Below, piece after piece: positions 996 through 39,184 of a stretch of 54,457 nucleotides of DNA (position 1 is the stretch's first letter; every line of letters starts with the position of its first letter). The stretch lies in UHGV virus genome UHGV-0096558. One strand, 5' to 3'. A program made the position numbers and the translations under genes. This stretch comes from a virus. Under the pieces are notes generated by a model. It searched no databases and was not told the origin of the DNA. It saw only the letters and a list, made by a program, of their open reading frames with translations.

Positions 996-1035
996 TATAC
1001 AAAATGTATTCGTTGAAGTGAAGCCATTTTGTATA
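996..1035. promoter_or_regulatory. inverted pair of 11-bp motif TATACAAAATG (996-1006) and CATTTTGTATA (1025-1035), 18-bp spacer; in divergent region between minus-strand cargo cassette and tape measure gene
   Basis: Read directly; same motif family recurs across the genome. Confidence 0.4.
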
Positions 1036-1074
1036 AAATAGAGACATAGATCACATCTTGTATGAGGTTAAATC

Positions 1075-3417
1075 ATGGCTACCAGTGTAGGTACAATTTA
1101 TTACGAAGTTGACGCGAAAACTGGTCAACTTCTCGTTGCACAACGACAGGCAGACCAGGCCTTTGACCGTATAGAGCGCGGCGCAAAACAGGCTGACCGC
1201 CAGGTAAACACCCTGAAAACATCCATCAAGGCACTGACCAGGGTTATCCATTTGCTAATTGCTGCCGAGGCTGTGCGCCAATTTATGGATATGGCGGAGC
1301 AAGCAAAAATGCTTCGCGTAAAAATCAAAATGCTTACGGGCGATGCGGAGTCCGCCGGACGGGTTTTCGACGGCCTGAAAGCAATATCCAGGGAAACGGG
1401 GCAAAGCCTGAAGGATACTGGCGAACTATGGCAAGGCCTGGCTATCTCACTGAAGAACACGTCCGCTACGGAAGGGCAATTGCTTAACCTGGTTGGTACG
1501 ATTCAGAAAATGGGGGCGTTGGGCGGTGCGTCAGCGGAGCAGATGTCAAACTCAATGCGTCAATTCCGTCAGTCTATCGACGGAGGCGTGCTTCGTGCTG
1601 AAGAATTCAATAGCCTGTTAGAGAACACCCCGACCATCGTACAGACAATGGCCCGCCAGATGGGGTTATCTATGGGCCAATTCCGCGCAGAAATGCTGGA
1701 AGGCAAGATCACGGCTGAAAGGATGGTTAACGCAATCCAGGCGGCTACGCAGGAAACAAACGAGAAGTTTGCGCAGTTGCCGCGCACATCCGGCATGGCC
1801 CTGAATGAGCTTAAAGTCGAGGTTATGGGGCTTGTTGAGCAGTTGGATGATCTTTTCGGTGTATCCGATACGGTTGTCGCTGGTATCGATCTTGTCACGA
1901 AAGGTGTTAAGGCTTTAGGTGAAGGCGCTGATTTCGCTAAAACCTGCTTTAACACACTGAAGACGGCTGGTAGCGAATTTATTGATATATTTGAAGATGT
2001 CGGAATCAAGGCTGGCGAGGTAGCGGAGAAGATCATCGCAATGGTCACGCCAATCAAAGCACTAATGGACGCCTATAAATGGATGAAGGAGGTTGTAGGG
2101 GAACAAACAGACGAATATAACAGCAACTACGAGAAGAAATACGGTAAGACCGTTGGTAAGGTCATGCAATTACAGGATGATCTGACCGCAGCAATCCAGG
2201 CTACAGAGGAAGCAAGGAAAAATGAACAGAATGCCGCCAATGACGGAGCGATTACCGGATTCGACAAGCCAGTAGACAAACCTAAAAAACAGAAAAAAGA
2301 GAAGAAATCAGAAGCTGATCGGCTTGGTGATAAAGGTATAAGCGTTTCTGACCAGTACAACAAAGACGCCGCCGCTATGCGCAAAGCGTTAGAGAACGGC
2401 AAGGCCATTGATGCTGCATTCGCCCAGGGTAAAATCACCCTCCTTGAGTACCGCGCCGCGCAAAAAGGGATAGGCAAGGAACTGAAGGAAGAATTAGCGC
2501 AAATTCCGGTAGAGGAATTGCGTGATAAATGGGCGCAAATAGTAAGCCCGATGGATCAGCTTAAAGGCGAGGTTGACCCTATTCAGCAGGTCCAGAATGA
2601 ATGGGCAGTCCGTAAGCAAATGCTTATCGACCTGGGCGTTACGGAAGCGCAACAGAAACAGGAACTGTTAGCCTATGAGCAGCAGATCCGCGATCTAAAG
2701 TGGGAACAATGGCAGGCGCAAAGCGACACAAACAGTCTGATAGGTTCTTGTGTCAACGGCCTAAAAGGTGGCATGAGTAATGCGCTTGTTGGTCTGTTAA
2801 ACGGTACTCAATCGCTTAGCGATGTATTCGCAAACTTGGGTAGCAATATTCTTGGTTCAGTAGGGAATAAACTTGCGGAAATTGCTGGCGACTGGATAGC
2901 CGATCAGATCATGATGGAGACACAAAGCAAGGCAACGCAGGCAAGTACAACGGCTGGCGCGGTAGCGGCACAAGGCCAGATTGCAGCGGCGGCGGCCCCG
3001 GCAGCGGCGGCAACAGCGGCGTCAACTGGCGGCGCATGGGCGGCGGCTGGTTCGGCGGCACTTACTGCGATCATGTCGCTGGCGGCGTCAATTTTTGGCG
3101 GCGGGCGATTTAATGGTGGTAGCGTCATTGGTGGCAATATGTACCGCGTAGGGGAACACAACAGGCCGGAGCTATTCCAGACGTCTAACGGAAACCAATA
3201 TATGATTCCGGGCGAGAACGGCAGAGTTATCCCTGGTCGTGATATTGGCGGCGGTGGCGGTATCAGTATGCCTGTCAGTATCACCATTCAGACCACAAAC
3301 GGATTTAGCGACGAGGACAGCCGCAGACTTGAGCAAACAATGGAACGTGTAGCAATGAAAATGATAACAAGGGAATCACAAAGACCGGGCGGAATATTGC
3401 AGCCGCGCCGCAAATAA
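1075..3417 (+). CDS. tail tape measure protein, 780 aa
   Basis: Long helical protein with Ala/Gly-rich C-terminal region and a lambda H-like C-terminal motif; lies immediately upstream of M-L-K-I-J homologues. Confidence 0.75.
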   Translation: MATSVGTIYYEVDAKTGQLLVAQRQADQAFDRIERGAKQADRQVNTLKTSIKALTRVIHLLIAAEAVRQFMDMAEQAKMLRVKIKMLTGDAESAGRVFDGLKAISRETGQSLKDTGELWQGLAISLKNTSATEGQLLNLVGTIQKMGALGGASAEQMSNSMRQFRQSIDGGVLRAEEFNSLLENTPTIVQTMARQMGLSMGQFRAEMLEGKITAERMVNAIQAATQETNEKFAQLPRTSGMALNELKVEVMGLVEQLDDLFGVSDTVVAGIDLVTKGVKALGEGADFAKTCFNTLKTAGSEFIDIFEDVGIKAGEVAEKIIAMVTPIKALMDAYKWMKEVVGEQTDEYNSNYEKKYGKTVGKVMQLQDDLTAAIQATEEARKNEQNAANDGAITGFDKPVDKPKKQKKEKKSEADRLGDKGISVSDQYNKDAAAMRKALENGKAIDAAFAQGKITLLEYRAAQKGIGKELKEELAQIPVEELRDKWAQIVSPMDQLKGEVDPIQQVQNEWAVRKQMLIDLGVTEAQQKQELLAYEQQIRDLKWEQWQAQSDTNSLIGSCVNGLKGGMSNALVGLLNGTQSLSDVFANLGSNILGSVGNKLAEIAGDWIADQIMMETQSKATQASTTAGAVAAQGQIAAAAAPAAAATAASTGGAWAAAGSAALTAIMSLAASIFGGGRFNGGSVIGGNMYRVGEHNRPELFQTSNGNQYMIPGENGRVIPGRDIGGGGGISMPVSITIQTTNGFSDEDSRRLEQTMERVAMKMITRESQRPGGILQPRRK

Positions 3418-3420
3418 ACA

Positions 3421-3452
3421 AAAACCCCGGTACAATGCCGGGGTTATCTTTT
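3421..3452. terminator. bidirectional rho-independent terminator (stem CCCCGG / CCGGGG with flanking A- and T-runs)
   Basis: Hairpin at 3425-3443 between convergent genes (tape measure +, 58-aa ORF -). Confidence 0.6.
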
Positions 3453-3627
3453 AGTTATTCTCAAAACTTGTATATCCTCTTTCAATTTTCCCGCCTCTTA
3501 CACTTCTTGCAAATACTGCATCAGCATGTTTGAAAAATGGTTCAGTATATGTGTCTCCTTTACTATCCATCCATTTCACGATCCAGGCTATACGTTTTAC
3601 ATTGCTTTTATTTGCCGGGTTTTTCAT
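3451..3627 (-). CDS. hypothetical protein, 58 aa (MKNPANKSNVKRIAWIVKWMDSKGD...)
   Basis: Manual translation (below ORF-track size cut-off); GGAGG 9-13 nt upstream of ATG at 3627; stop adjacent to terminator. Confidence 0.5.
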   Translation of the reverse strand: MKNPANKSNVKRIAWIVKWMDSKGDTYTEPFFKHADAVFARSVRGGKIERGYTSFENN

Positions 3628-3746
3628 TTTATTTTCCTCCGCAAATTACAATCTTCCGTTTCTGGCTATATAGCTGCGAGAAAACATCACCAACCAAATA
3701 TTCCAGATCTCCCGCCAGGTGAATTTATCGTCCTCCATATCCCGCC

Positions 3747-4001
3747 TCACTTATGCGCCCCTTTAACCCCGCAGTGGCGGTTATATTCCAGATGATCGAT
3801 GATTAACCAGACTTTGAGATCTTCGCTAAACAGCCGCCAGTCAGGGTTAATATCGAATTTAAAACCGTAACCATCGCGTAACTTTTTGGGGCGCGCCTCT
3901 TTCTTCAAAAATGCTTTAAGCAGTTCCTTACCCTTCTTGATAATCCGGTCCTGTGCGTTTTTCTGTACTTTCAGGTTTTTGTCGATCGCTACCAGTTTCA
4001 T
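3747..4001 (-). CDS. hypothetical protein, 84 aa; cargo gene between tape measure and M
   Basis: ORF track; RBS GGGGGTGAG upstream of ATG at 4001. Confidence 0.6.
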   Translation of the reverse strand: MKLVAIDKNLKVQKNAQDRIIKKGKELLKAFLKKEARPKKLRDGYGFKFDINPDWRLFSEDLKVWLIIDHLEYNRHCGVKGAHK

Positions 4002-4020
4002 AGCTCACCCCCGATTATCC

Positions 4021-4176
4021 TTAATTAAGAGCCTTCAGGAAGAAACCACGGTATTCATCTTCTTTTGCATTCATCATGAATTGACCGTATTTGAATGCAT
4101 CGTCGAAACCCTTAACGATTGCTATTTCCACTTGTTCGAATGCGTTGTTTAGCATTACCACTACATAGCGTTTCAT
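4021..4176 (-). CDS. hypothetical protein, 51 aa (MKRYVVVMLNNAFEQVEIAIVKGFDD...)
   Basis: Internal start of ORF 4021..4227 with strong RBS AAGGAGG; 20 nt upstream of next gene in the same cassette. Confidence 0.5.
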   Translation of the reverse strand: MKRYVVVMLNNAFEQVEIAIVKGFDDAFKYGQFMMNAKEDEYRGFFLKALN

Positions 4177-4242
4177 TTTTGGGCCTCCTTCGTTGGTACT
4201 GCTTTTCTTCTTGCTTTCTATATACATCTTGATGCGTGCTAT

Positions 4243-4330
4243 GTGAAGCCATTTTGTAAACTAGCTATAATCATTGTGATGAAGATCTCATTTTTTGCGT
4301 AGAATCGCGTAAAAGTATATACAAAATGTA
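4243..4330. promoter_or_regulatory. divergent control region carrying GTGAAGCCATTTTGTA (4243-4258, identical 16-mer at 1017-1032) and TATACAAAATGTA (4318-4330), then RBS and M start
   Basis: Read directly. Confidence 0.4.
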
Positions 4331-4346
4331 AATTATAGGGGGATTT

Positions 4347-4700
4347 ATGCCTGAAGTGTTCCGATGGACACCACAAAGAAGCTACAGCGTAAACAGTGAG
4401 CCTAACGTGTCTGTCATTAAGCTGGGGGATGGGTGTGAACAGCGCCAGACAAAAGGGATTAACCCTTTACTTGATAGCTACAGCCTGGTTTTTAAAGGCA
4501 CAAGCGCCGGATGCGGTGACGCCGGAAACGTGGCGCTCCAGGTTGACGCATTTTTAAGGGCGCGTTGCGCGGTCGAGGCGTTTTACTGGACTCCATCAAC
4601 TGACGGGGTGCAAAGGCTTTTTGTATGCAGAAAGTGGAGCATGACGAAAGACGGCCCGGTATGCACGCTAAACGCAACTTTTGAGCAAGTTGTCAATTAA
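4347..4700 (+). CDS. M: minor tail protein M-like
   Basis: 117 aa ending ...ATFEQVVN, as recalled for lambda gpM; position upstream of L. Confidence 0.75.
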   Translation: MPEVFRWTPQRSYSVNSEPNVSVIKLGDGCEQRQTKGINPLLDSYSLVFKGTSAGCGDAGNVALQVDAFLRARCAVEAFYWTPSTDGVQRLFVCRKWSMTKDGPVCTLNATFEQVVN

Positions 4701-4999: not shown

Positions 5000-5248
5000 T
5001 CATAACGCCCCCTTCAAATATGTCAATCCCTTATCAGTGACGAATGAATGATTTACCTGGTTTTCATCCGTCATGATGATGAATAACTTTTCCTGTAGGT
5101 ATTTTGCTTTCGGGTACAGCGTTAAGCAGACCTGGTACAGTATCCCGCGTTCAATCAGTAAATCAATGAATTCATGTTCATGATAACCGACAAGGCGGGC
5201 GGCCTGCTTCAACGTGTACACATAATTACTGTGATTGCGCCGCGCCAT
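5000..5248 (-). CDS. hypothetical protein, 82 aa (possible helix-turn-helix region)
   Basis: ORF track; RBS AAGGCGG upstream; last gene of a 3-gene minus-strand cassette. Confidence 0.55.
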   Translation of the reverse strand: MARRNHSNYVYTLKQAARLVGYHEHEFIDLLIERGILYQVCLTLYPKAKYLQEKLFIIMTDENQVNHSFVTDKGLTYLKGAL

Positions 5249-5257
5249 ATTGCCGCC

Positions 5258-5611
5258 TTATTTATTGAACGCGCCAAGGTTGTCGATACAGAAATCTTTC
5301 GCCGCTTTTTCGTATTCGCGTTTTGCTTCAGGATCATCTGCCGGGAAACCGTGCGCGTGTATTTCCGGGCAAGACTGATCCATAGAATCCGCAAGGTTTT
5401 CTTTAAAGCAAGCGCCGTTATCAATATCGTATTTCATACATTCCACCTTATCCGGTATTTGCACTGGAGTAATTTTGAATTCTCTGGCGCGTCCGAAGAA
5501 TCGAACAAGTTTTTCTCCTTCCTCGACTGCCATTTCGTAACTGTCATGCAAGCCGTAACCTTCCCAATCATCACTACCAGCCATCCAGACATCAAGACGA
5601 TACTTTTGCAT
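5258..5611 (-). CDS. hypothetical protein, 117 aa
   Basis: In-frame internal ATG of ORF 5258..5689 with RBS GAGGG upstream; acidic protein. Confidence 0.5.
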   Translation of the reverse strand: MQKYRLDVWMAGSDDWEGYGLHDSYEMAVEEGEKLVRFFGRAREFKITPVQIPDKVECMKYDIDNGACFKENLADSMDQSCPEIHAHGFPADDPEAKREYEKAAKDFCIDNLGAFNK

Positions 5612-5615
5612 TTTG

Positions 5616-5780
5616 CTAACCCTCATATTTGACAGGTTTGATCTGGTATCCCAAAACGCGGTCATCCTCCGAAAGTTCAAGCGCATCAATCAGCGCTTCC
5701 CCCTCGTCGTCATACAGAGCGATAACCTTTTCCCTCCCGTCAGTCATGAACACCGTCAACTTCCATAGCTTTTCAGTCAT
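5616..5780 (-). CDS. hypothetical protein, 54 aa (MTEKLWKLTVFMTDGREKVIALYDDEGE...)
   Basis: Internal start of ORF 5616..5900 with GGAGG 6 nt upstream; first gene of cassette. Confidence 0.4.
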   Translation of the reverse strand: MTEKLWKLTVFMTDGREKVIALYDDEGEALIDALELSEDDRVLGYQIKPVKYEG

Positions 5781-5909
5781 CATGCACCTCCGCGCCATTT
5801 TGTTAACTATGCTTCCGTTTGAGTAAAATATACATATTGTAAAAACCGCGATCAATCCATTTTGGTATGATTTAGCGTGACGCAGATCACAAAATGACAA
5901 GGTGAGAAA

Positions 5910-7835: not shown

Positions 7836-10800
7836 ATGGGCGGCGGTGGTGGTAAAGCAAAAACACCAGTTTTATTAAACGATAACTTGTATCATAAGCA
7901 GTTTTATCGCGTCCTGGATATCCTGTCAGAAGGGCCGATTTATGGCCCTGTCAATCAGGCGGCACCGTTAAACTGCGTAATGCTTAATGATACGCCTATA
8001 ACTGACACCGTGGGTAACGCAAGTATCCCCGGCGTTAGTATTGCGTGGCGTCCTGGTAGTCTCGACCAGTCTCCAATCAATGGATTTAACTCCATTGAAT
8101 CGACTGTAATGGTCAATGCACAGGTTAAGCACGATACGCCGATTATACGCACAGTATCAGACAGAAATGTCAATCGTGTACGTCTTAATATTGGCGTTGA
8201 TTCTCTGGTATCGAGCGACAACCAGGGGAACCAGTACGAAACATCCGTACATTTAGCTATAGATATTAAACCTTCATCATCATCGTCATGGACTATAGTT
8301 AAAGATGTAATTATCGGACCGGGTAAAATTAGCGGGGAATACCTTGAATCACACATCATTGATGCGCCGAGTGAGTACCCTTTCGATATTCGCGTTCGCA
8401 GAATTACGGCAGATAGCACCAGCGATCTACTTCAAAACGACACACGCTGGAATAGCTACAGCGAGATCATAGATGACAACCTGTCATATCCTCACACGGC
8501 GGTAGCTGGCTGTGTTATTGATCACGATCAGTATACTGATACACCGACCCGCGCTTATCATCTTCGCGGGCTGATTGTTGACGTGCCGGACAACTATAAC
8601 CCTGAAGCGCGCACGTATTCCGGTTTATGGCTTGGTGGATTTAAAAAGGCGTACACCAATAACCCTGCTTGGCTTTTCCGGTATTTGATTAAAAATGAAC
8701 GCTTTGGCCTTGCACGACAGGCTGGTTATATTGACGTTGATGACGGCGCTTTATACGTGCTTTCTCAATACTGCGACCAGTTGGTTGATGATGGCTACGG
8801 CGGCCTTGAGCCTCGCATGACGCTTAACGCTTACATCACAGAGCAAATGAGCGCCCGCGACTTACTTGATAATATAGCTGGCATGTTCCGTGGTATTGCG
8901 TTATGGGACGGGCAACGTCTTACAGTGATGATTGATGCGCCACAAGATCCGATTGCAACTATCACGAACGCAAATGTCGTAGATGGTGCATTCACCCGTT
9001 CGAGCCTTGCCCGCGCGGAGTGCTATAACGCCGTGATTGTATCCTGGACCGATCCGGGTAACGGTTGGGAACAGTCAAAAGAATACGTTTCTGACGATGA
9101 ACTAATCGCCCGCGACGGCTACAACGAAACCACACTGGAGGCGTTCGGGTGCACGTCTCGCGGACAGGCTTACCGCGCTGGTAAATGGCTAATCGAAACA
9201 GCAAAACGCGAGCCGTCGAAATTTACGTTTAAAATGGCCCGTGACGCCATTCACTTTACACCAGGTGATATCATTGAGATCCTCGACAATAACCGCGCGG
9301 GCGCTCGCTTAGGCGGTCGTATCGTGGCGAACAATGGCAAAGTGATAACGGTCGACAAGGTTGATTCTGAATATATCGCGGCTGGTGACACCATCAGCTT
9401 ACTTGATAGCGATGGTAAATTTAAAAAACACCAGATCACCGGAGTTAACGGAAACAATATTACCCTTGCTGCGGCCCCGGCATGGATTCGCAATGGCACT
9501 GTTTTTGCTGTATCGACTGAAGCAGCAAAACCCGTTTTATGTAGGATCACCAGCGTAGCAGAAACAGAAAATAACAGCGTATACACTATCGAAGCCGCAC
9601 AGCACGACCCTAACAAACAGGCCGTAGTTGATGAAGGCGCAGTCTTCGAAATCAACAACGACACGCTGAATCATTTCCGTGTGCCTAACATTGAAAACCT
9701 CAAGGTAATGAATGTTGGTTCCGAAACCGTTCAGTGCTCCGCGTCGTGGATGACGCAGACCACAACTCACCGTCTGACCTTTGAATTACGTGTTTATAAC
9801 GAAGACAGCAAAGTTGTCGCCAGTTATGAGACGACAGAATTCCGGTATGATTTTAATGGCCTGAATTGCGGTCAATACTCTTTAGGCGTTCGCGCCCGCA
9901 ATGATACCGGTATGAAAGGCGCGGAATCTATCGTTGATCTCGTTATTGGTGCACCTTCAAAACCAATTGGTGTTAACTGGATACCAGGCGTATTTCAGGC
10001 TACTGTGTACCCAATCAGCAAAACAACTCTGACCAGCGATACAAGCTATGAATTCTATTTTGCTGGCGAAACACAAATCACTAATCCGGCATTAGTCACC
10101 ACTAATGCACAATATACCGGACGTGGTTATCAGTGGACGTTCGGCGGAATGAACACGGGCCATACTTATTACGTTTATGTGCGCACGCGTAACGCTTTTG
10201 GTGTATCAGATTTCGTAGAGGCGTCAGGTAAACCAACAGAGGATTTCGATGAAATCAGCGATTACGTAACCAAAGACGTGATGAATTCTGACCAATTTAA
10301 AGGAATGGTTAGCGACATTAAAGATCTTGGCGACCGCACCGACCTTATCGAAAGCGCCACTGACGACCTTAAAACAGCCACTGATAATCTTACCAATATC
10401 ACAAACGGCCTAAGAACTGATACTGACGACCTTATTGCAGAAACAGGGTCAATAAAAGCTGACACAGATACGCTTAAAAAAGACACGGAAGATCTTTATA
10501 AAAAAGTTCAGGAAAACGCCGATGATATCGGACAGCATGAGGTAAGAATTGACTCATTAGAGGTATCAAGTGAAAAAACCGACAGCGAACTGGCGCAGGC
10601 AAAAGCAAGCCTACAAAACGCATCGCTTGCCCTTATTAATAACTCGCTTGCACAGACTAACACCCGCGTAACTCTTACCGCTCAGTACAAGAAAGGTAAA
10701 ACAGAGACGAAAGCGGAAATTGACCGTATTGACAACGTTATCGCTGAAGAGAAAAAAGCGACTGCGGAATCACTGGAAACCATCACGGCAGAGATGAACA

Positions 10801-12275
10801 CGATGGATACCAACCTGAAAGGTCAGATTTCCAATGTTCAGCGTGCAGTAGCTGACGAGGCGAGCGCCCGCGCTGAAGCTATTAGTGGTGTAAACGCATC
10901 GATCACCAACCTTGATAAGAAAACCGACGCCAACGTAAACCGCCTTGATCAAGCTATCGCTGACGAAACCAGCGCCCGGACTCAGGCCGTCAGTGACGTG
11001 AACGCAAGCATCACCACGCTGGACAAGAAAACTGATGCCAGTGTGAAACGACTTGATCAAGCAATCGCAGATGAAACAAGCGCCCGGACTCAGGCCGTCA
11101 GTGACGTGAATGCAAGCATCAGCACGCTTGATAACAAGGTGACAAGCAATGTGACCCGTATCGACAAAGCTATTGCAGATGAGACAAAGGCACGCACAGA
11201 CGCAATAAGCAGCCTTAACTCATCGCTTACCAGTACGATTAATTCGAAAGTATCTGAAGTATCAACAGCACTTTCTACGCATGAAACATCAAGCGCGGAA
11301 AAATTCAGCCAGATCTCTGCATCTTTCGAAGCGGTAAACTCAAGTATCACAGAATGGTCGCAGACCATGACAACGGCGGACGAGGCATTATCAACCAAAA
11401 TTGATCAGTTAACAGTAACCGTTAACGGGAACACAACGGCGATCGAGACAACATCGAAAGCGTTAACCGACTTCAAAGGTAACGTTGATGCGTCATATTC
11501 AATTAAGATTGCCACCGACAACAACGGCAGAAAATACGCAACAGGTATGTCGCTTGGCCTTACTGGTAGCGGTACTGACGTTCAATCGCAGTGTATTTTC
11601 CTTGTTGACCGCTTCGTGTTAATGACTGCCGCCAACGGCACATACCAGACGCCTTTCTATGTCACTAACGGCGCAATGTATGTGCGCGAAGCGTTTATTA
11701 AAGACGCATCGATCACGACTGCAAAAATAGCACAGCAGATTCAATCAACCAACTTTGCTTCCGGTTCCGCTGGGTGGATGATTAACAAAAACGGCAGCGC
11801 GCAATTTAATAACGTAACTGTAAGGGGGACCGTTTACGCAACATCCGGCGAGTTTTCTGGGACCGTTAAAGCTAAAGCATTTGAAGGTGGCATTAGTTCC
11901 GGTACGCAGGGAACAAGAAGTTCCAGCGGGACGATCACAATTAACGTAACCCCAGCAACCCCGAATAGTATGCTATTGCTTTTCGTTTCTGTATACACGG
12001 CTGGCGTGCGCACAGCAAGCGGCGACCATACCGTCACTCTCCATGCGGGAGGTCGTAGTTTTAACGTTCCTCCGTCTTATCTTGCAGGTAGCGGTGTAGC
12101 GTCAACTTACAGGTTCGATTCAACTATAATTATCCCGGTTACAGGGACCAATAAGAGGGCGGTTTCGATATACTTAAGCCAAGTGGGCCACGTATCATTA
12201 ATAAATACAGATATAAGACTTCTCGGCGCTGTATTACTAAACACCTCATTCTCATCAGGTACTTTTGATTTTTGA
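7836..12275 (+). CDS. J: host specificity protein J (central tail fibre / tip attachment), 1479 aa, with inserted coiled-coil repeat region
   Basis: N-terminal region similar to lambda gpJ over roughly 750 aa (e.g. DILSEGPIYGPV, NPAWLFRYL, EPRMTLNAYIT, GCTSRGQAYRAGKWLIE). Confidence 0.9.
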   Translation: MGGGGGKAKTPVLLNDNLYHKQFYRVLDILSEGPIYGPVNQAAPLNCVMLNDTPITDTVGNASIPGVSIAWRPGSLDQSPINGFNSIESTVMVNAQVKHDTPIIRTVSDRNVNRVRLNIGVDSLVSSDNQGNQYETSVHLAIDIKPSSSSSWTIVKDVIIGPGKISGEYLESHIIDAPSEYPFDIRVRRITADSTSDLLQNDTRWNSYSEIIDDNLSYPHTAVAGCVIDHDQYTDTPTRAYHLRGLIVDVPDNYNPEARTYSGLWLGGFKKAYTNNPAWLFRYLIKNERFGLARQAGYIDVDDGALYVLSQYCDQLVDDGYGGLEPRMTLNAYITEQMSARDLLDNIAGMFRGIALWDGQRLTVMIDAPQDPIATITNANVVDGAFTRSSLARAECYNAVIVSWTDPGNGWEQSKEYVSDDELIARDGYNETTLEAFGCTSRGQAYRAGKWLIETAKREPSKFTFKMARDAIHFTPGDIIEILDNNRAGARLGGRIVANNGKVITVDKVDSEYIAAGDTISLLDSDGKFKKHQITGVNGNNITLAAAPAWIRNGTVFAVSTEAAKPVLCRITSVAETENNSVYTIEAAQHDPNKQAVVDEGAVFEINNDTLNHFRVPNIENLKVMNVGSETVQCSASWMTQTTTHRLTFELRVYNEDSKVVASYETTEFRYDFNGLNCGQYSLGVRARNDTGMKGAESIVDLVIGAPSKPIGVNWIPGVFQATVYPISKTTLTSDTSYEFYFAGETQITNPALVTTNAQYTGRGYQWTFGGMNTGHTYYVYVRTRNAFGVSDFVEASGKPTEDFDEISDYVTKDVMNSDQFKGMVSDIKDLGDRTDLIESATDDLKTATDNLTNITNGLRTDTDDLIAETGSIKADTDTLKKDTEDLYKKVQENADDIGQHEVRIDSLEVSSEKTDSELAQAKASLQNASLALINNSLAQTNTRVTLTAQYKKGKTETKAEIDRIDNVIAEEKKATAESLETITAEMNTMDTNLKGQISNVQRAVADEASARAEAISGVNASITNLDKKTDANVNRLDQAIADETSARTQAVSDVNASITTLDKKTDASVKRLDQAIADETSARTQAVSDVNASISTLDNKVTSNVTRIDKAIADETKARTDAISSLNSSLTSTINSKVSEVSTALSTHETSSAEKFSQISASFEAVNSSITEWSQTMTTADEALSTKIDQLTVTVNGNTTAIETTSKALTDFKGNVDASYSIKIATDNNGRKYATGMSLGLTGSGTDVQSQCIFLVDRFVLMTAANGTYQTPFYVTNGAMYVREAFIKDASITTAKIAQQIQSTNFASGSAGWMINKNGSAQFNNVTVRGTVYATSGEFSGTVKAKAFEGGISSGTQGTRSSSGTITINVTPATPNSMLLLFVSVYTAGVRTASGDHTVTLHAGGRSFNVPPSYLAGSGVASTYRFDSTIIIPVTGTNKRAVSIYLSQVGHVSLINTDIRLLGAVLLNTSFSSGTFDF
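10833..11242 (+). repeat. in-frame tandem repeats inside J: two near-identical 108-bp units (10941-11048, 11049-11156) flanked by degenerate copies; exact 32-mer at 10970-11001 and 11078-11109
   Basis: Read directly; encodes repeated motif RLDQAIADETSARTQAVSDVNASIT.LDKKTDA. Confidence 0.7.
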
Positions 12276-12280
12276 TACCA

Positions 12281-12305
12281 GCCCCGCTTCGTGCGGGGTT
12301 TTTTT
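12281..12305 (+). terminator. rho-independent terminator (GCCCCGC / GCGGGG then T7)
   Basis: Immediately after J stop. Confidence 0.7.
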
Positions 12306-12388
12306 ATACGCATTGTAAACTCAAGTTCGTTCTTGTAATGACAAAACGTTAAAATGGTAACGTTAATTAACGAAATGGAGTCATTGCG

Positions 12389-15300
12389 ATGATTTATACA
12401 ACAGGCACAATTGCAATTAGCGGCAATACCTTAACTGGTGTTGGCACTAATTTTACAGCGCCGCTTTCCCTTATCCGTGTAGGCTGTACACTGATCGCCG
12501 TGGGAAACCCGGTGCAAATTTTCTCAATCACAGAGATTAAAAGCGCTACAGAGCTTTCCGTTTACCCTGCCGCAAATCCCGCAATCCCTGCCGGGACAGA
12601 ATTTAGCATCCTGCTTACAGACTCAATTTCCGTCGATGGTCTTGCTCAGGACGTAGCTGAAACACTGCGTTACTACCAGGGCAAGGAAACAGAGATCGCC
12701 GCAGCCGTCGAGTGGTGGAAAGATTTCGGCGGTGATGGTCAGATGGATCAGCTTCTTGCCAACATTCGCGAAGAAACAGCGAAATCAACCGCCAACGCTC
12801 AAAAAACAGAAGCTGACAAGAACACAACCGAAGGTTACAAGAATGCTGCGGCATCATCTGCAACAGCGGCAAAATCATCTCAGGATGCAGCAAAAGCCAG
12901 CGAAACATCAGCCAGCAACAGCAAAACAGCGGCGGCAACCAGCGAAACCAATGCGGCGAAATCAGCAGCCGATGCGCTTAATTATAGAAATCAAGCTCAA
13001 TCCATTGTTGGCAGCAACATTGGCTTAGGTGCATCGCCGCGTGATTGCCCTGACATTTCCGGCAATCCATCCGGTTATATTGGCTTTATGCGCATTATGG
13101 CTGGTGCGAAAGGTTTTCCATCAATCGCATCAGGTGAAAGCAGCCTCACAGGCTTTATTAGCGGAGTTGACGGAAGTCCGACATATGCAGGTATTTTCCA
13201 GGGCTGGGCCTCAAGATCGCTTTATACTTACCGTTGGAGTGAAGGTACAGGCCCGCAATGGACTCGACACGCAAGAAAAGACGAAGTAGATCGCATTTCT
13301 CAAATGAGTGGCGATCAGACGCGCATTTACGCTGGCAACGGTAAAACTTATTTAGAGGTTGGCAATGATCGTGCATGGGGTGTTTATAATAGCGAGACTG
13401 GTCAATGGAAACCGTTAGATCTTGCTCAAGGCGGTACGGCAGGACGTAACGCAGGACAAGCACGCACAAACCTTGAGGTTATGTATGAGAAAAAATCAGA
13501 TCTAAGTTCCACAGATATTAATACGCTTACTGGCGAGTATTCCGGTTTTTATTACCAGGGGTTAAACTCCAACGCTACGTCAGAGCGTGGCTATCCTGTA
13601 TCAAGTGCGGGCGCATTGCTTGTCATCAGAAACAATGCAAACGGTAACGCAGGATGCACGCAGCTTTATTTCCCTTACAATGCCACGACTGGCACATTTT
13701 ATATGCGCCAGTACATTATTATTTCCTCTACGACTGGCTGGGAGTGGACCGCATGGAAGAAATTTCAGTCTCTTGATTTTACTGATAGCCCGCAATTTAC
13801 AAACCTTAATCTTGTAAGATCTTCAGATGTAGCAACTACCGCAGGCGGTATTTTACAAAGCATCCTTAATGATGCATCAGGCGCACAAAGAGCGCGAGCG
13901 CGTTTTTATTCAGAATTCCGTGGCGATGGTAAATCATGGGCCACAATTCACCTACAGAATGGAGATAAAAACCAATACGCAGGATTAAGCGAAGACGGCG
14001 ACTTTACTTTAAATAGCGGTGATTTTATAGGTAGGCGTTTAAGATTAACAGCTAATTTTAATTATCCCGTAGAAATATCAAGCGCTCATCCTACCATCAG
14101 ATTCAACGAAACGGATCGGCCATCAAATACACCTTACTATAGCCTTATCTTTGATGGTGGTAACTGGCGTATTCAGAAAGACGGATATGACGGGACGAAA
14201 ACAAGCTATTCAATGAGCTATAACTATGCAAGGGATGAAATAGAAGTACCTAACCTGAAAGTCAATGCAATTGCAGTACCTACAAACCTTGAACAAACTA
14301 AAACAAATATGCAAATCCCGTTTGCAGGTATTGCGCATTGGGTTGATTACAACGCTCCTACTGGTGCTGAAGCTGGTAAATATTACCCTGTAATTGTCAG
14401 CCATCCTTCATACTATAACGGCGATTTCCTTGTTGAAGTTGCAATGAGAACTAAGTCAATATCTGGCAGTGAAGAGCCTAACTGTAACGCAATTCACTTA
14501 TGGTTGCGTGATGGTGGCTGGTCAGATATGGGTGCGGCTGTATTTGGTCATTATTTCTGTTACGCAAACAATGAAAACGCGATACTTTGCGTGCGCGGTA
14601 CTGATAAAGGTCAGTATCCACATAACGCAATCTATGTTCGCGGTGACGCTTTCCCTATTCGTCTTGCCGTCACGGTTGGCTGTACTGTAACAATACCTAC
14701 AGCAGACTGGAAACCTTCAACAGCGGGCGATAGCCCGACTTATAAATGGGGTATCACTAATTCCTCTGATGGTATTGATTTAGATACTTACGGCATTAGC
14801 AATAACTTACTTGATTTCACATCGAGTGCAACAGGGTTTTATTGCACTGATACATACCGCAATAAATATGGTGATTCTTATCAGGTTATACAATCAAACG
14901 GAACTATACAGCCAGCTAACGGAGTTGCAACATATTTAAATCAAGACTGGAACGCACAACAATCAGACGGAGTAAACAAGTTTAAACCGATTGCTGGTCA
15001 AACGAATACGCCGGAAAATAATGTAGTTTATGGCGGCTTTCATGTTGGCTTTAGCGGTAACTACGCTACTCAATTCGCCGGACGTAATTCAAAATTCTAC
15101 GCCAGAAGTTTTGAGGCCGGAGTAGATAAAGGCTGGTGTCAACTTGCTACGCTTAACGCATCTTCGCAAAGGTGGACTGGATACCAACAATTCAAATCGA
15201 CGGAGTTTTTCGCTGATACTTACACAAGAAAAGTAAGTTTAGCCGTCGCAAATTCAGCGGTAAGAAATGGCGAGCTTTATTTGTGGGGTGCAGAAAGCCG

Positions 15301-21308: not shown

Positions 21309-21326
21309 TATGGCATCGCCTCCGGT

Positions 21327-22469
21327 TTACAAAATGGAATATTCAGGGTAATAAACAAAGCGCCCGATTTCCCCATGATCAGGACTGTAAATTATTACCG
21401 CAGCCAGCCGCCGCGACCGCCAGCCGCCATTCGTTGAATAAGCGTCTTTGCCAGCTAACGTGCCGTGATACTCAACAACGCCTAACGATGATTCAATCAG
21501 CCGTTGGTGGTGCCAGTGTCCGCAATGGGCGTAAACCGCCGCCGACTTGCCGAAATCCTCCCTCCAGTCAGAGACGCAGGCAGACAACAAATTTTCTGGT
21601 TTTTTGATAGTATGACCGTGATGATAGGCAAGGAATGTTTTGCCGTACTGTGTGTGGTGGACGATAGCAGGGGACACGTCAACCGTCACACGCGGTTCAT
21701 CTTCGTAAAAAGCCGCCAGCGCCGCACGTAGCCAAATCATCCCTGATTGGTCGTGGTTGCCGGATAATACCTGGATCTCGACGTCCTTATGATTTAGCAA
21801 CATCTTTCCGACCGCCCGCCGGACCGAACGGATCGCCACGTAAACAAGTTTTGCGTAGCGTGAATCACAATCTAAGACGTGGTTGCTTGATGGCGTCACT
21901 GGTAATAGCCCGTCAGTGTGAAGAATATCACCGCCTAACAACAAAACAGCCTTTTCAGACATTGGCGCAGCGCCTACCGCGTAGTCGAAGAAGTCATTTA
22001 GCACGCGTTCAGCGATCCCGGTGTCGTAGCTCTCACCGCATTCAGCTTTATGAGCAAGCGCCCCGATATGCAGATCGAATACCGGATAAAGGGCCAGGCT
22101 TTTTTGAAAATCAATTTCCGGCACTGGCACGGCCTCCGCGCGGGGTATTTCTTCCGTGAAGGCGTCACAAGCAGATTGCATTAGCATTTCCATTTCATCG
22201 CGGTCACGGGCTGTTTTAATCCAGCGCATAATCACATTGCCATCCTTATCGACGAGCAATGACTCAGCATTGACGCCAAAACCCGGTGCGCGGCGCGTGG
22301 ATATCAAACCGCGTTTCGCCAACCGTGCGCCCAGGCGTTCGACGTTGCGTTTTGCCATGCCATATTTTTCTGCGATCTGTTTATACGTCAGACCGTTATT
22401 ATGTTCAGCGATTAACTGTTCATCGCTGATCTTTCTTTGACACATAATGTTATATCCTCCGGTATACAT
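21327..22469 (-). CDS. fusion protein: N-terminal helix-turn-helix plus C-terminal calcineurin-like metallophosphoesterase; in the helicase-loader position
   Basis: HTH-like LTYKQIAEKYGMAKRNVERL; phosphoesterase-like motifs VFDLHIGA, GGDILH, GNHD, HCGHWHH; preceded by motif TATACAAAATGTATA and RBS GGAGG. Confidence 0.65.
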   Translation of the reverse strand: MYTGGYNIMCQRKISDEQLIAEHNNGLTYKQIAEKYGMAKRNVERLGARLAKRGLISTRRAPGFGVNAESLLVDKDGNVIMRWIKTARDRDEMEMLMQSACDAFTEEIPRAEAVPVPEIDFQKSLALYPVFDLHIGALAHKAECGESYDTGIAERVLNDFFDYAVGAAPMSEKAVLLLGGDILHTDGLLPVTPSSNHVLDCDSRYAKLVYVAIRSVRRAVGKMLLNHKDVEIQVLSGNHDQSGMIWLRAALAAFYEDEPRVTVDVSPAIVHHTQYGKTFLAYHHGHTIKKPENLLSACVSDWREDFGKSAAVYAHCGHWHHQRLIESSLGVVEYHGTLAGKDAYSTNGGWRSRRLAAVIIYSPDHGEIGRFVYYPEYSIL

Positions 22470-22500
22470 TTTGTATATTCATTGACAGCAAACAATCTCT

Positions 22501-24390: not shown

Positions 24391-24699
24391 AAATATTGGC
24401 CTCCTATGGTTAAAAATGAACGCGCGGGCGGGTATCCCATTAGCATTAGGTAGCAGTGATTGACCGCTTAACAGATCCCGCCGTTGCGTGATATTTGTTT
24501 TTCGCTTCGCAGCGACACCTAGTTTTTAAAGAGCATAAGGTATGCGCCTTTTTGTGCTATTCCGTTATCTTTTTTCTTGCGTCTTTGCAACTATGGCCTT
24601 ACCTTGTCTGCAAGTTTACAGAATGGCGTTTTTAGGTCAAGACTTGAAAAATACATTTTGTGACTTGTATCAAACTTTTTGAGGTTATAGGGTAGCGAC

Positions 24700-25347
24700 A
24701 TGAAAACAAAATGGTATGACTTAGCAAAGCAGCTCATGCGAGCGCAAGGTATGAGCCAAGATTCACTCGCGGATCTCATGGGGATAACTAAAGGCGGCCT
24801 GTCACACTGGCTTAACGGTCGCCGCGAGCCAAATCTTGAAGATATTGCGCGGATTATGCGGGCGCTTGGTCGTCGGCAATTCACTGTTACACATGATGGA
24901 ATGGTCATTGATGATTCTGTTTCTAACACGTTACCGGGAGCGCCGCAGCGTGATTTAGGTAGTTACCCGGTTGTTGACTGGAAGGACACAGTAAACAATA
25001 TGGATGATACAAGGCTATCAACATTACCACACGTTACGACTAGCGTTATTTGTTCAGATGATAGTTACTGGCTGGTTGCCAAAGGTGAATCAATGAACGC
25101 GCCGCAGGGGTTGAGCATCCCGGCGGGGACGATGATACTTGTTGACCCGCACGCGCCAGCTATTGACGGCAAACTGGTTATAGCCCAGCTTGAGGAAGGG
25201 CAGATACCGACGTTTAAACAGTTGATTATTGATGGAGGTCAAAGGCTTTTACGTTCGCTCAATCCGCTGTATCCGCCAATCCCTATGAATCCAGAATCAA
25301 AAATTATAGGCGTGGTGGTTGATGCGAAGATCGTAAACCTGCCATAA
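24700..25347 (+). CDS. cI: CI-like repressor (HTH plus S24 LexA-type autopeptidase domain)
   Basis: N-terminal HTH (SQDSLADLMGITKGGLSHWLNG); C-terminal ...LVAKGESM... and ...VVVDAKIVNL; divergent from replication operon. Confidence 0.85.
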   Translation: MKTKWYDLAKQLMRAQGMSQDSLADLMGITKGGLSHWLNGRREPNLEDIARIMRALGRRQFTVTHDGMVIDDSVSNTLPGAPQRDLGSYPVVDWKDTVNNMDDTRLSTLPHVTTSVICSDDSYWLVAKGESMNAPQGLSIPAGTMILVDPHAPAIDGKLVIAQLEEGQIPTFKQLIIDGGQRLLRSLNPLYPPIPMNPESKIIGVVVDAKIVNLP

Positions 25348-25457: not shown

Positions 25458-25499
25458 TATACAAAATGGATTGACTCGGTGTTTTACGGGGCGTATATT
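25458..25499 (+). promoter_or_regulatory. candidate early promoter: motif TATACAAAATGGA then TTGACT (25471-25476), 17-nt spacer, TATATT (25494-25499); AT-rich upstream
   Basis: Near-consensus sigma-70 hexamers with 17-bp spacing. Confidence 0.5.
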
Positions 25500-25847: not shown

Positions 25848-26138
25848 ATGAGCGTTACAATTATGTATGGCAAATGTGACAGTAAACTGAATGCCAGGGA
25901 ACGCAGAAGGATAAAAAGAGAAAACGAAAGAAAATCATCACCTGCAATCAATAAAACAGACAATGTGGATAAAGCTATTCGATTTGCAAACGAGGAAAGA
26001 TGCAAACCAAATAGCATTAAAGAACGTCGCAAAGGATCAGTAAAATGGTATACGGAAAATGAAAGCGGCAGCTACTACCACGCAACGCAACCACGCCATT
26101 TAGGGGAAAAACCCCTGGATAAAGTCCGCTACCATTAA
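25848..26138 (+). CDS. basic protein with N-terminal arginine-rich motif (RERRRIKRENERK); possible N-like antiterminator
   Basis: ORF track; first gene after long leader; arginine-rich motif reminiscent of lambda N. Confidence 0.5.
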   Translation: MSVTIMYGKCDSKLNARERRRIKRENERKSSPAINKTDNVDKAIRFANEERCKPNSIKERRKGSVKWYTENESGSYYHATQPRHLGEKPLDKVRYH

Positions 26139-26168
26139 TACAAAATGTAAACATTCGGAGGTGACATT

Positions 26169-29526: not shown

Positions 29527-29625
29527 CCGAGTGATTCCGATCACATAAATATACATTTTGTATCGTGATCGCATATCCGTTTTGTAAGTCGAAATCAAAA
29601 GGTTTACGGTGCGGAGGAAGCAAAA

Positions 29626-29844
29626 ATGGAACGCGAATTCATGCTTTATTGCGTTGAAGGTGGCGTAGGTCATGATGCCTACGTTGCCGGGAAAAGCTAT
29701 CCAACCGATGAAGTGCTTTCTAATATGCACTTCAGGGAAAATGAAAGCCAGGTGTCTGTGTGGAAGAAATGCGTAGATGGTATTGAGGTCGTTAGCCTTG
29801 AAAGATATTTAGGTAAATTCGACTACGGAGTTATTGAGGCTTAA
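29626..29844 (+). CDS. hypothetical protein, 72 aa
   Basis: ORF track; RBS GGAGGAAG; preceded by palindrome GTGATTCCGATCAC and TATACATTTTGTAT. Confidence 0.55.
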   Translation: MEREFMLYCVEGGVGHDAYVAGKSYPTDEVLSNMHFRENESQVSVWKKCVDGIEVVSLERYLGKFDYGVIEA

Positions 29845-33120: not shown

Positions 33121-33279
33121 AGTTCACAAAATGGCGTCATTGCGTGATATGGATCACATAATGGCGCTTTTCGCTTTGTTCTGGTGTATCCATATTGTAT
33201 ACTTCAAGCAAACAAAATGCTCTTTAAAAATCCGGCAGCGCTGAAATGCGTAGAAATCACCTGAAAAGGAGAGAGCATT

Positions 33280-37976: not shown

Positions 37977-37980
37977 TATC

Positions 37981-38196: not shown

Positions 38197-38438
38197 AAGT
38201 GAATTATTTCAGGGCAAAAGACAAGGCAACAGGAAAGCGGGTGGCTATCCTGGTTAATGAAGCAAATTATATGTTTGTTCTCCAGCCGTGGTGCATAGCT
38301 GACTATAACGATGATTATCGCCGTCACGCTGCGCGGCGGGCGGTCGGGATGAAAGGCTGGCAACCGCGAGACATGCTTAATTATTGCGACTGGAACCTGA
38401 TAGCAAAATACACGGTCGATTATAAAGGGGTTTTCTGA
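38193..38438 (+). CDS. hypothetical protein, 81 aa
   Basis: ORF track. Confidence 0.5.
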   Translation: MKVNYFRAKDKATGKRVAILVNEANYMFVLQPWCIADYNDDYRRHAARRAVGMKGWQPRDMLNYCDWNLIAKYTVDYKGVF

Positions 38439-38440
38439 TT

Positions 38441-38656
38441 ATGTTTGCAAGATGCGTTTATTCTGACACTACGTGCTTTACTACTGGCGAACTATATAGC
38501 GTTGATCTTCTTAATGGGTGCGAGCGCGGCGCTGGCGGTATTCATTATGTAAAAGATAATGATGGCGATGCGTGGCAATTTTACGGCGATTACGTAAAAG
38601 GGGTTGTTAAGGGTAGTTTTGATAATCGTGTGATGGCGCGTTTTGTTAAGTGGTGA
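38441..38656 (+). CDS. small protein, paralogue family member (C..S...F..G..Y ... D..G..W.FY pattern)
   Basis: ORF track; shares motif with 38666..38905 and 38902..39126. Confidence 0.5.
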   Translation: MFARCVYSDTTCFTTGELYSVDLLNGCERGAGGIHYVKDNDGDAWQFYGDYVKGVVKGSFDNRVMARFVKW

Positions 38657-38665
38657 GGTAGTGTT

Positions 38666-38905
38666 ATGAGACAGAATCAGAGATACCAGTGCACATACTC
38701 ACGATGCAGCGCGTTTTTTAAGAATGGCAAGATCTACGAAGTCGGCGCGGCATTGGTTGACGCAAAGGATCAGGAATATATTCACGCCATTACTGACGAC
38801 CAGGGCCAGTTATGGCGATTTTATAAGATGGGCTGTGGCACTGCGCTTGTTTATGCGCGTGCTGGTGGTGGTGCTTTTGCTGCGTTTTCGTATGTAGGGG
38901 TATGA
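38666..38905 (+). CDS. small protein, paralogue family member
   Basis: ORF track; CTYSRCSAFFKNGKIYEV...DDQGQLWRFY. Confidence 0.5.
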   Translation: MRQNQRYQCTYSRCSAFFKNGKIYEVGAALVDAKDQEYIHAITDDQGQLWRFYKMGCGTALVYARAGGGAFAAFSYVGV

Positions 38906-39126
38906 AAATGATTTTAACGTGTAACGAGTCGGAATTAGGCTGTTTTGAGGAAGGCGCACAGTATACGGCTGAAAAACCGATGGGATTGTCGCCTAAGTTG
39001 CCGTTTATCGTCGTGACTGACACTTACGGTCACTTATGGTATGCAGAGCCGCGCCGGGGGACTGGTCGCTACGTTGTCCGTAGTTCTGACGGGGCTATGA
39101 AAGTTACTTTTACGGAAGAAACATAA
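38902..39126 (+). CDS. small protein, paralogue family member
   Basis: ORF track; CNESELGCFEEGAQYTA...DTYGHLWYAE. Confidence 0.5.
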   Translation: MKMILTCNESELGCFEEGAQYTAEKPMGLSPKLPFIVVTDTYGHLWYAEPRRGTGRYVVRSSDGAMKVTFTEET

Positions 39127-39184
39127 ATGTGATCTTCATCACAAGGTATACAAAATGGCATTGTTTCGGCAGTGCCATTTTGTT
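39127..39184. promoter_or_regulatory. compound element: palindrome GTGATCTTCATCAC, then TATACAAAATGGCA / TGCCATTTTGT inverted repeat (11-bp arms, 11-bp spacer)
   Basis: Read directly; upstream of gene 39225. Confidence 0.4.

Follow-up and report, generated by a model that had tools for sequence, protein, structure and literature searches.

A recurrent motif in an mEp021-group coliphage as part of a probable dispersed operator of its CI-type repressor

A short motif that recurs between the genes of the viral genome UHGV-0096558 (54,457 nucleotides, analysed over its full length and called the window here) is best explained, with a probability that we put at roughly 0.8, as part of the operator of the phage's own CI-type repressor, Rep, dispersed over the genome. 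The grounds for this reading are identity with the operators of outgroup phages, enrichment, spacing, geometry and conservation, all of which are observed. The window holds the complete, or nearly complete, genome of a temperate siphophage from the mEp021 group of coliphages ("mEpimmI"). It is 86–88% identical to mEp010, mEp013, mEp044 and mEp554 across long stretches and 88–96% identical to MagusPhagus, and the IMG/VR contig 3300045988_060283 shows 100% protein identity to it for both probe genes. The mEpimmI phages, which are Nus-dependent and have N-like and Q-like antiterminators, make up about half of a collection of human-faecal temperate coliphages; all 48 known members carry one highly conserved CI-type repressor, Rep, the operators of which were left undefined in that study (PMC11893012).

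The recurrence itself is robust. The 9-mer TACAAAATG or its complement is found ten times in the window against 1.10 in dinucleotide-preserving shuffles (standard deviation 0.99, maximum 3), and none of 100 shuffles reaches ten, so that its frequency is above background even though the chance expectation of 0.4 given in the initial annotation was too low. TATACAAAATG with at most one mismatch occurs 11 times (1.83 expected), and an unbiased k-mer scan ranks ACAAAATG/CATTTTGT first among the over-represented 8-mers of the window (20 against 3.2), while TACAAAATGTA is seen five times where 0.04 would be expected. Five of the ten exact 9-mer sites read TACAAAATGTA, which is the core of the palindrome TATACA-N3-TGTATA. 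The functional unit thus appears to be not the 9- to 11-mer that was first described but a 15-bp palindrome with an A/T-rich centre, of which the motif is a fragment and which usually has a weaker partner 24–25 bp away. With up to two mismatches this palindrome is present at 14 sites in the window (2.2 expected), one of which, at 22463, is a perfect copy.

A base-by-base check confirmed the coordinates first assigned at 996–1006, 1025–1035, 4249–4258, 4318–4328, 25458–25470 and 29550–29563, and also at 5879–5900, 33121–33169 and 29531–29544. Others had to be moved: the site placed at 22473–22487 lies at 22467–22477, that at 26147–26158 at 26137–26147, that at 39145–39155 at 39147–39157, and the palindrome at 39127–39140 occupies 39128–39143. 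The inverted partner given as 39171–39181 is CATTTTGT at 39176–39183, reading CATTTTGTTATA and not CATTTTGTATA, and an exact 9-mer site at 21328–21336 had been overlooked. The 16-mer shared by two regions does start at 4243, but its other copy starts at 1018, not 1017. The placing of the motif between genes is right for about 15 of the 20 ACAAAATG sites and wrong for those at 6630, 24706, 47334 and 51237, which have a coding or start-codon context; the copy at 21329 straddles a gene boundary. Proximity to ribosome-binding sites, which had been given a meaning of its own, is a by-product of short intergenic gaps. Across the family, ACAAAATG occurs in more than 25 unrelated sequence contexts, and a literature search for the motif sequence returned only primers and eukaryotic matches.

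The identity of the palindrome comes from phages outside the family. Rep is 97% identical to the mEp021 repressor and homologous to full-length lambda CI (PDB 3bdn; phmmer E-value 3.9e-19, residues 15–208), and both its helix-turn-helix (HTH) domain and its S24/LexA-like one are likewise given in PMC11893012. Its nearest homologue outside the family is the repressor of Erwinia phage Midgardsormr38, with 45% identity overall, 63% identity in the N-terminal, DNA-binding domain and a predicted recognition helix that is nearly unchanged (ITKGAVSHWLNARREP versus ITKGGLSHWLNGRREP in Rep). The cro-cI gap of Midgardsormr38 holds three palindromes, TATACAtttCGTATC, TATACAAAATGTGTC and ATACAgatTGTAT, and a second, OL-like cluster holds three more sites spaced 25–32 bp apart, as in the lambda layout; in a genome-wide scan, all five sites with at most two mismatches fall inside OR or the OL-like cluster. 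Enterobacter phage ENT1, which has the same helix, has an OR of three sites and an OL of two, the latter 25 bp apart, with no further sites of that quality in its 48 kb. In the Klebsiella prophage ST512-KPC3phi13.5, where the helix is slightly different, AATACAaaaTGGAAG and AATACGgaaTGTAAT lie directly upstream of the repressor gene. Since the same palindrome stands beside cI in the Erwinia, ENT1 and Klebsiella phages, the best reading of TATACA-N3-TGTATA is that it is the operator of this repressor lineage.

Binding by a protein other than Rep, be it a Cro-like protein, another phage HTH protein or a host factor, is the kind of explanation that classical switches bring to mind, where Cro shares the operators of CI, and some family members do encode a small HTH protein (mEp021 gp14 / mEp010_17) as the first gene of the PL operon. 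The window, however, has no homologue of this protein at 24391–24612 and no cro-like open reading frame between PR (25471–25499) and the N-like gene (25848), yet it keeps all of the sites. The site also co-occurs across genera with one lineage of repressor DNA-binding domains, and a host factor would leave its absence from distant coliphage relatives unexplained. We therefore hold another binder to be extremely improbable. As for named host factors, IHF, Fis, OmpR, PhoP, DnaA, sigma-54 and LexA were compared by their consensus sequences, and none fits more than one site. Among the roles and binders initially suggested, that of operator for the CI-like protein is strongly supported; the N-like and Q-like proteins drop out as binders, and a boundary role keeps partial support at one place. 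With neither a gp14 homologue nor a cro-like frame, the lysis-lysogeny switch of this phage may work without Cro.

Rep varies little within the family: its copies are at least 91.6% identical in every family locus that spans rep, and the N-terminal 67 amino acids are 100% identical in seven sequenced family phages. Heteroimmune relatives were sought as a control and none was found in 43 early-region loci, all of which have the same Rep; the outgroup repressors therefore served as the control instead. A weight matrix was trained only on 14 outgroup operators (six of them from the Erwinia genome), which themselves score 10.8–20 bits, and sites of at least 14 bits were taken to be of operator grade. 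The window contains eight such sites (996, 4318, 5829, 22463, 25458, 26137, 29550 and 33187) against 0.72 expected and a shuffle maximum of three. All eight lie between genes, and they are spread over 996–33201, with one at PR and none at PL; about ten weaker operator-like sites accompany them. In the list of the initial annotation such operators were mixed with sequences that score as non-operators, namely 5886 (ATCACAAAATG), 33123, 33209 and 39172.

Dispersal of this kind is a property of the family. The Erwinia genome has no site of at least 14 bits outside OL and OR, while mEp021 has seven, all between annotated genes, and mEp010 has ten. In relatives gathered without the motif as bait, using the minor tail protein and the N-like protein as anchors, 80 family loci yield 2.2–2.4 operator-grade sites for every 10 kb, and 484 kb of distant tail-gene relatives yield none. 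ACAAAATG behaves in the same way: per 10 kb there are 5.3 copies in the 37 tail loci of the family, 8.5 times the expected number, and 4.9 in its 43 early-region loci, but 0.52 in 42 distant relatives with a tail protein 63–69% identical.

Six of the eight strong sites are accompanied, at a distance of exactly 24–25 bp, by an operator-like partner (1021, 5854, 22439, 25483, 26161 and 29574; null probability 0.001–0.024 each), and the mean partner score over all eight peaks only at 24–26 bp among the offsets of 12–59 bp examined. This is also the OL spacing of the outgroup phages (25 bp), and, by analogy with lambda CI, it would suit two Rep dimers that bind cooperatively. Conservation follows the palindrome: alignments with 16–35 unique family sequences for each site give a conservation of 96.5% for the arms, where 73% of columns are invariant, against 92.5% for the centres and 88.9% for the flanks. 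At six of the eight strong sites no family variant scores below 12.9 bits, and all 28 variants at 26137 score at least 15.9 bits; at 996 and 4318 a minority of the variants drops to 7.0 and 9.0 bits, respectively. At 996, positions 1–9 (left arm and centre) are invariant in 23 unique sequences, the right arm is variable, and 87% of the variants have at least 10 bits. The substitutions that do occur (TATACG, CGTATA, TGTGTT and the centres ttt, gaa and tat) are those found among the outgroup operators; at 22463 the arms are kept while the centre swaps between ttt, gaa and tat.

The geometry is clearest at PR, where the right half of the upstream operator, TGGATT, is that of Erwinia OL3. The block AAAAAGTATACAAAATGG does not change in 34 unique family sequences, nor do the two promoter hexamers, although the 17-nt spacer does, and PL behaves alike. 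At 24615, over the PL -10, the commonest family variant (9 of 24 unique sequences) is TTTACAaaaTGGAA, a form with a score of about 10 bits where it stands at 21326. The register of PR, with an operator at 1–15, the -35 at 14–19, a second operator at 26–40 and the -10 at 37–42, recurs at three leftward promoters of the tail module, P_a-left, P_b-left and P_c-left. In these, the outer operator halves are consensus and the inner halves are constrained by the -35 and the spacer, which accounts for the "inverted pairs" and the shared 16-mer noticed initially. A different operator candidate in the PR and PL spacers (GGYGTTTTAYG, AAAACGCCATT) was rejected, as its positions vary across a family of one immunity.

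The alpha-CTD (C-terminal domain of the RNA polymerase alpha subunit) proximal subsite of UP elements has the consensus AAAAAARNR. One might see in the motif an element of host-polymerase promoters that needs no phage protein, either a -10 region (CATTTTG-TATAnT) or a proximal UP-element-like A-tract upstream of the -35, spread as a shared promoter cassette. Most contexts, when read as CATTTTG, do continue in -10-like sequences (TAAACT, TATACT, TATAAA, TATATT), and ACAAAATGG sits at -45 to -37 in four promoters, the place of the proximal subsite. Against this, the motif, being family-specific, is missing from distant relatives although these use the same host polymerase, no promoter lies in register with the strong sites at 22463, 26137 and 4318, and the palindromic symmetry, the conserved arms around variable centres and the cI-cro clusters of the outgroups would all go unexplained, which makes this account very unlikely in our view. 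Likewise, the motif was rejected as a -35 or -10 hexamer itself, with no consistent partner hexamer at most sites and the non-promoter sites unexplained.

The three leftward candidate promoters stand at the 5' ends of accessory cassettes that interrupt the rightward tail operon (155–814, 3451–4227 and 5000–5800, all on the minus strand) and that encode a VasI-like protein (associated with type VI secretion systems), a ParE-like toxin with small neighbouring open reading frames, and a protein with KilAC/ANT antirepressor domains. In Magus and mEp010 a fourth cassette (lipoprotein), with its own operator pair, lies between J and the tail fibre; where the window has its operator-like site at 12305, relatives carry this leftward lipoprotein cassette with stronger sites. 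The P_a-left module at 990–1040 is followed by six cargo types in 36 loci, and in 10 of the 36 homology to the window stops at the promoter edge. Together with the motif copies at the 5' end of every leftward tail-module cassette, this recalls a boundary sequence, a short homology for cassette exchange like the promoter/stem-loop cassettes proposed for T4-type phages, and a role in module exchange had indeed been proposed initially. At 990–1040, where all six cargo types share the same operator/promoter module, that proposal has partial support. Elsewhere it fails: P_b-left and P_c-left are followed by essentially uniform cargo, with homology that extends 420–900 nt beyond the motif, and half of the strong sites are away from cassette borders. 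A boundary would in any case follow from a conserved regulatory module, and it leaves the palindrome, the spacing and the outgroup operators unexplained, so as a general explanation we give it hardly any weight. A conserved regulatory "socket" beside variable cargo fits the observations at P_a-left as well as those at P_b-left and P_c-left. The cassettes are not delimited by terminal inverted repeats of the kind seen in miniature inverted-repeat transposable elements, as both motif copies are at the same (5') end of each.

Folding separates the operator pairs from hairpins. That the motif works at the RNA level, as a hairpin in 5' untranslated regions, a translational operator or a processing site, with the inverted pairs as terminators, would agree with the several sites that lie 13–21 nt before start codons and with the pairs at 990–1042, 39143–39195 and 33123–33180, which fold significantly better than shuffles. 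The inverted pair at 39147–39186 folds within 39143–39195 into a hairpin (free energies of -20.6 and -15.4 kcal/mol, z of -5.2 and -5.3) that is most likely a bidirectional intrinsic terminator; a GC-containing hairpin with a U-run right behind it also occurs at 33123–33180 (z -3.7), while 990–1042 folds (z -4.9/-7.9) with an A/U-rich stem that lacks a GC clamp. The pairs at PR, 29550, 26137 and 22463, however, fold no better than shuffles (z -0.4, +1.4, +0.4 and -1.5). The sites occur in both orientations relative to transcription, the upstream site at PR precedes the -35 and hence lies outside the PR transcript, the unit is a DNA palindrome with a fixed partner spacing of 24–25 bp, and three other phages carry the same sequence in DNA operator clusters of the classical kind. 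An RNA element is thus a most doubtful explanation.

Returning to the operator of Rep, the steps that we envisage are as follows. By analogy with lambda CI, a Rep dimer would bind the 15-bp palindrome, and strong and weak copies 24–25 bp apart would let two dimers bind cooperatively. At PR the two sites would place Rep against the -35 and over the -10, so that RNA polymerase should be shut out. The three cargo promoters are of sigma-70 type and share this register. Lysogens would therefore keep the cassettes silent, and derepression would switch them on, probably aided by cAMP-CRP at the adjacent TGTGA-N6-TCACA sites. At the other strong sites, which lie in short gaps within the early operons (22463, 26137, 29550 and 33187) and ahead of a tail gene (4318), Rep could shut off secondary promoters or stand in the way of elongating polymerase as a roadblock. 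A register check found no promoter at 22463, 26137 or 4318; Rep bound at the first two would thus be a roadblock or act on something else. Binding by Rep, its oligomeric state and the direction of its effect on transcription are in this scheme what we infer from DNA sequence.

Several observations weigh against the scheme. In the window the site over the PL -10 scores only 1.8 bits, and the two sites of PL are 35 bp apart, not 25. The strong sites 4318 and 33187 have no partner; several of the existing partners are weak (1.0–6.8 bits), and two of them overlap start codons, which may be part of the cause of their conservation. The cargo -10 hexamers TATAAA and TATATA lack the usual final T, and the starts of these promoters are predicted ones. 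An A/T-rich palindrome embeds -10-like sequence and may thereby inflate the apparent association with promoters, and what marks the outgroup "operators" as such is their position and repetition. Finally, a centre at -41 with a 2-bp overlap of the -35 is the geometry of lambda CI at OR2 with respect to PRM, where it activates; repression of the cargo promoters is therefore uncertain, and activation at some of them is possible.

The GTGAT-N4-ATCAC palindrome that had been noted ahead of two motif sites is a separate and independently enriched element, TGTGA-N6-TCACA, of which the window has eight sites with at most one mismatch (1.37 expected). Most lie 20–45 bp from an operator, and many contain GATC (Dam) within TGTGATC or GATCACA. 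At 4275 the half-sites are conserved in the family while the 6-nt spacer varies freely. The supposed motif variant at 5886, ATCACAAAATG, is the right half of such a site and has an operator score of -1.0. The parsimonious candidate for the binder is cAMP-CRP: the core is that of its sites, and the left flank of the site at 39128 (AAATGTGATCT) is identical to the consensus. CRP sites are centred at -41.5, -61.5, -71.5 and so on from a transcription start; counted from the cargo-promoter starts that the -10 hexamers predict, the centres here would lie about 60.5 or 70.5 bp upstream, near class I positions. A phage-encoded protein of similar specificity is a possible alternative.

As a sequence element, then, this would be an ordinary CI-type operator, and the departure is in its layout. 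With the lambda-type CI operators (lambda, 434, P22) it shares a partly palindromic site of about 15 bp with half-sites about one helical turn apart, an overlap of the sites with the -35 and -10 of the divergent early promoters next to the repressor gene, strong and weak copies that neighbour each other about 25 bp apart, a sequence common to outgroup phages with a 3+3 layout, and a repressor with an HTH and an S24/LexA-like C-terminal domain (PMC11893012). The classical sites are confined to OL and OR, whereas the operator-grade sites of the window extend over at least 32 kb, and the window, as it seems, has no cro gene next to PR. Midgardsormr38 and ENT1, both scanned whole, have the classical two-locus layout, unlike the mEpimmI phages.

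Two unrelated systems resemble the working of this layout. In cluster A mycobacteriophages (L5 gp71, Bxb1, TipsytheTRex), many repressor sites, the stoperators, are placed genome-wide in promoters and short intergenic gaps, and their dispersal suggests prophage-wide silencing (PMC9283540). The L5-type repressors are monomers with two DNA-binding domains that recognize an asymmetric 13-mer at more than 20 sites, the orientation of which tracks transcription and matters functionally (PMC9283540). Rep is instead a CI-type repressor with a palindromic site, pairs 24–25 bp apart and about eight strong sites; the half-consensus sites of the window stand in both orientations relative to transcription, and a block of elongation by Rep is only a proposal here. 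P1 C1 is likewise a coliphage immunity repressor with many dispersed operators that control separate operons and accessory and antirepressor-type functions, and its 22 operators are asymmetric 17-mers (ATTGCTCTAATAAATTT; PMC8546580). C1, however, is unrelated to the CI/LexA-type repressors, and P1 is a plasmid prophage without N/Q antitermination. The present case thus fails the defining features of the P1 C1 and L5 systems yet resembles their working.

Our analysis gives a concrete, testable operator, TATACA-N3-TGTATA, paired 24–25 bp apart, together with a map of its positions (Table 1), and it suggests that the reach of the immunity repressor goes beyond the two early promoters, to the tail-operon cassettes, with CRP-like input, and to sites in the interior of the early operons. 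If this is true, the mEpimmI phages would offer a CI-type case of dispersed operators, a strategy hitherto documented for the unrelated P1 C1 and L5 gp71, and accessory genes would be wired into the lysis-lysogeny switch through a reusable promoter "socket". More speculatively, and with odds that we regard as somewhat unfavourable, a lambda-CI-type repressor of a widespread gut coliphage family may have evolved from the two-locus layout to a genome-wide regulon that gates antirepressor and toxin cassettes jointly with cAMP-CRP and uses operator pairs within operons as elongation roadblocks, a dimeric, palindrome-reading counterpart of the mycobacteriophage stoperators, with a Rep-controlled antirepressor perhaps replacing Cro to make the switch irreversible.

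Table 1. Predicted operators, promoters and associated features of the window
Feature	Position	Strand or direction	Sequence	Score (bits)	Context
Strongest operator	996..1010		TATACAaaaTGTATT	20.0	Identical to Erwinia OL1; covers P_a-left -10 TATAAA
Partner	1021..1035		AAGCCAtttTGTATA	11.1	25 bp from 996; abuts P_a-left -35 TTCACT, covers rightward TATAAA
P_a-left promoter	operators 1021 + 996	leftward	TTCACT-17-TATAAA
P_b-left promoter	operators 4246 + 4221	leftward	TTCACA-17-TATATA
Half-consensus operator	4246..4260		TTTACAaaaTGGCTT (leftward reading)	7.9	Abuts P_b-left -35 TTCACA; PR register
Operator	4318..4332		TATACAaaaTGTAAA	16.5	Just upstream of ribosome-binding site of minor tail gene (4347-4700); family 9.0-16.5 bits
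Operator	5829..5843		TATACAtatTGTAAA	16.5	Over P_c-left -10 TATATT
Weak partner	5854..5868		ATACCAaaaTGGATT (leftward reading)	4.9	25 bp from 5829; abuts P_c-left -35 TTGATC
P_c-left promoter	operators 5854 + 5829	leftward	TTGATC-17-TATATT		Also found by promoter scanner
Operator-like site	12305..12319		TATACGcatTGTAAA	11.0	Gap between J gene and tail-fibre gene
Operator-like site	21326..21340		TTTACAaaaTGGAAT	10.2	Just upstream of ribosome-binding site of helicase gene (minus strand)
Weak partner	22439..22453		GACACAtaaTGTTAT	6.8	24 bp from 22463, null probability 0.004; overlaps start codon of gene 21327-22445
Perfect palindrome	22463..22477		TATACAtttTGTATA	19.7	Within leftward early operon, upstream of ribosome-binding site of gene 21327-22445
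nutL boxA	24520-24536	-	GCTCTTTAAAAA
Site over PL -10	24615..24629		TTTACAgaaTGGCGT	1.8	-10 TAAACT at 24618-24613, minus strand
PL promoter	24640-24613	-	TTGACC-16-TAAACT		Found independently by promoter scanner
Operator-like site	24650..24664		AATACAtttTGTGAC	12.5	Between PL and rep start; overlaps CRP-like site 24659-24674
rep	24700..25347	+			CI-type immunity repressor, HTH and S24/LexA-like C-terminal domain (homology); putative motif binder
PR operator	25458..25472		TATACAaaaTGGATT	16.8	Last two bases are first two of -35 TTGACT (25471-25476); centre about -41
PR promoter	25471-25499	+	TTGACT-17-TATATT		Found independently by promoter scanner
PR weak partner	25483..25497		TTTACGgggCGTATA	4.9	25 bp from 25458; overlaps -10 TATATT (25494-25499), centre about -16; family-conserved
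nutR1 boxA	25543-25559		CACTTTAAAAA
Operator	26137..26151		AATACAaaaTGTAAA	16.7	Directly after stop codon of N-like gene (25848-26138)
Operator	29550..29564		TATACAtttTGTATC	18.7	Intergenic gap before gene 29626-29844
Partner	29574..29588		TATCCGtttTGTAAG	10.5	24 bp from 29550, null probability 0.0015
Operator	33187..33201		TATCCAtatTGTATA	16.5	Overlaps candidate -10 TATACT just upstream of nutR2 boxA (GCTCTTTAAAAA, about 33219)
nutR2 boxA	33217-33231		GCTCTTTAAAAA
CRP-type sites	1040, 4275, 5876, 24659, 27921, 29530, 33143, 39128
Perfect CRP-type palindrome	39128..39143		TGTGAtcttcaTCACA
Inverted pair	39147..39186			7.9 and -2.1	15-bp GC-topped hairpin and U-run on both strands

The three nut sites reported for mEp021 can be located in the window by their shared boxA, each followed by a small hairpin with an A-rich loop; the boxA elements of nutR1 and nutL follow PR and PL. 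A stretch resembling ACAAAA(A/T)G precedes each boxA, and at nutR2 ACAAAATG directly abuts it. The motif was considered as a boxA or nut element and rejected: boxA is GCTCTTTAAAAA, and the motif merely adjoins it at nutR2. Over the 33187 operator (33187–33225) lies a candidate sigma-70 promoter, TTGTTC-16-TATACT, with a start a few bases before the nutR2 boxA; such a promoter might account for the presence in the family of a third nut site at a long distance from PR.

Several internal genes start in a ACATTATG(T/G) context that resembles the operator core ACA-N3-TG, and the start regions at 22445 and 26179 are the weak partners 24 bp from the strong operators 22463 and 26137. A translational hairpin between the motif and the ACATTATG start regions was rejected, as it folds no better than shuffles; the similarity is better read as that of a weak partner operator. 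The rep gene has no Shine-Dalgarno sequence, and a -10-like TTATAG lies about 10 nt ahead of its ATG (24661–24702), so its transcript may be leaderless or nearly so, as is that of lambda cI from PRM. Codons 2–5 of rep (AAA ACA AAA TGG) include the 8-mer ACAAAATG, a coincidence of coding.

In Midgardsormr38, a module like immI of P22 at 10441–12777 places Arc-family regulators and two antirepressor genes within the tail region, in the position that the ANT cassette with its Rep-operator control occupies in the mEpimmI phages. Further over-represented 8-mers of the whole window are AAAACCCG/CGGGTTTT (19 against 3.0 expected), AGCGCCCG (15 against 2.4) and CGCCGGAC (13 against 1.9), and GTGTACAC occurs 118 times in the family tail loci, where 6.9 would be expected; CGGGTTTT probably marks terminator stems with T-runs following them.

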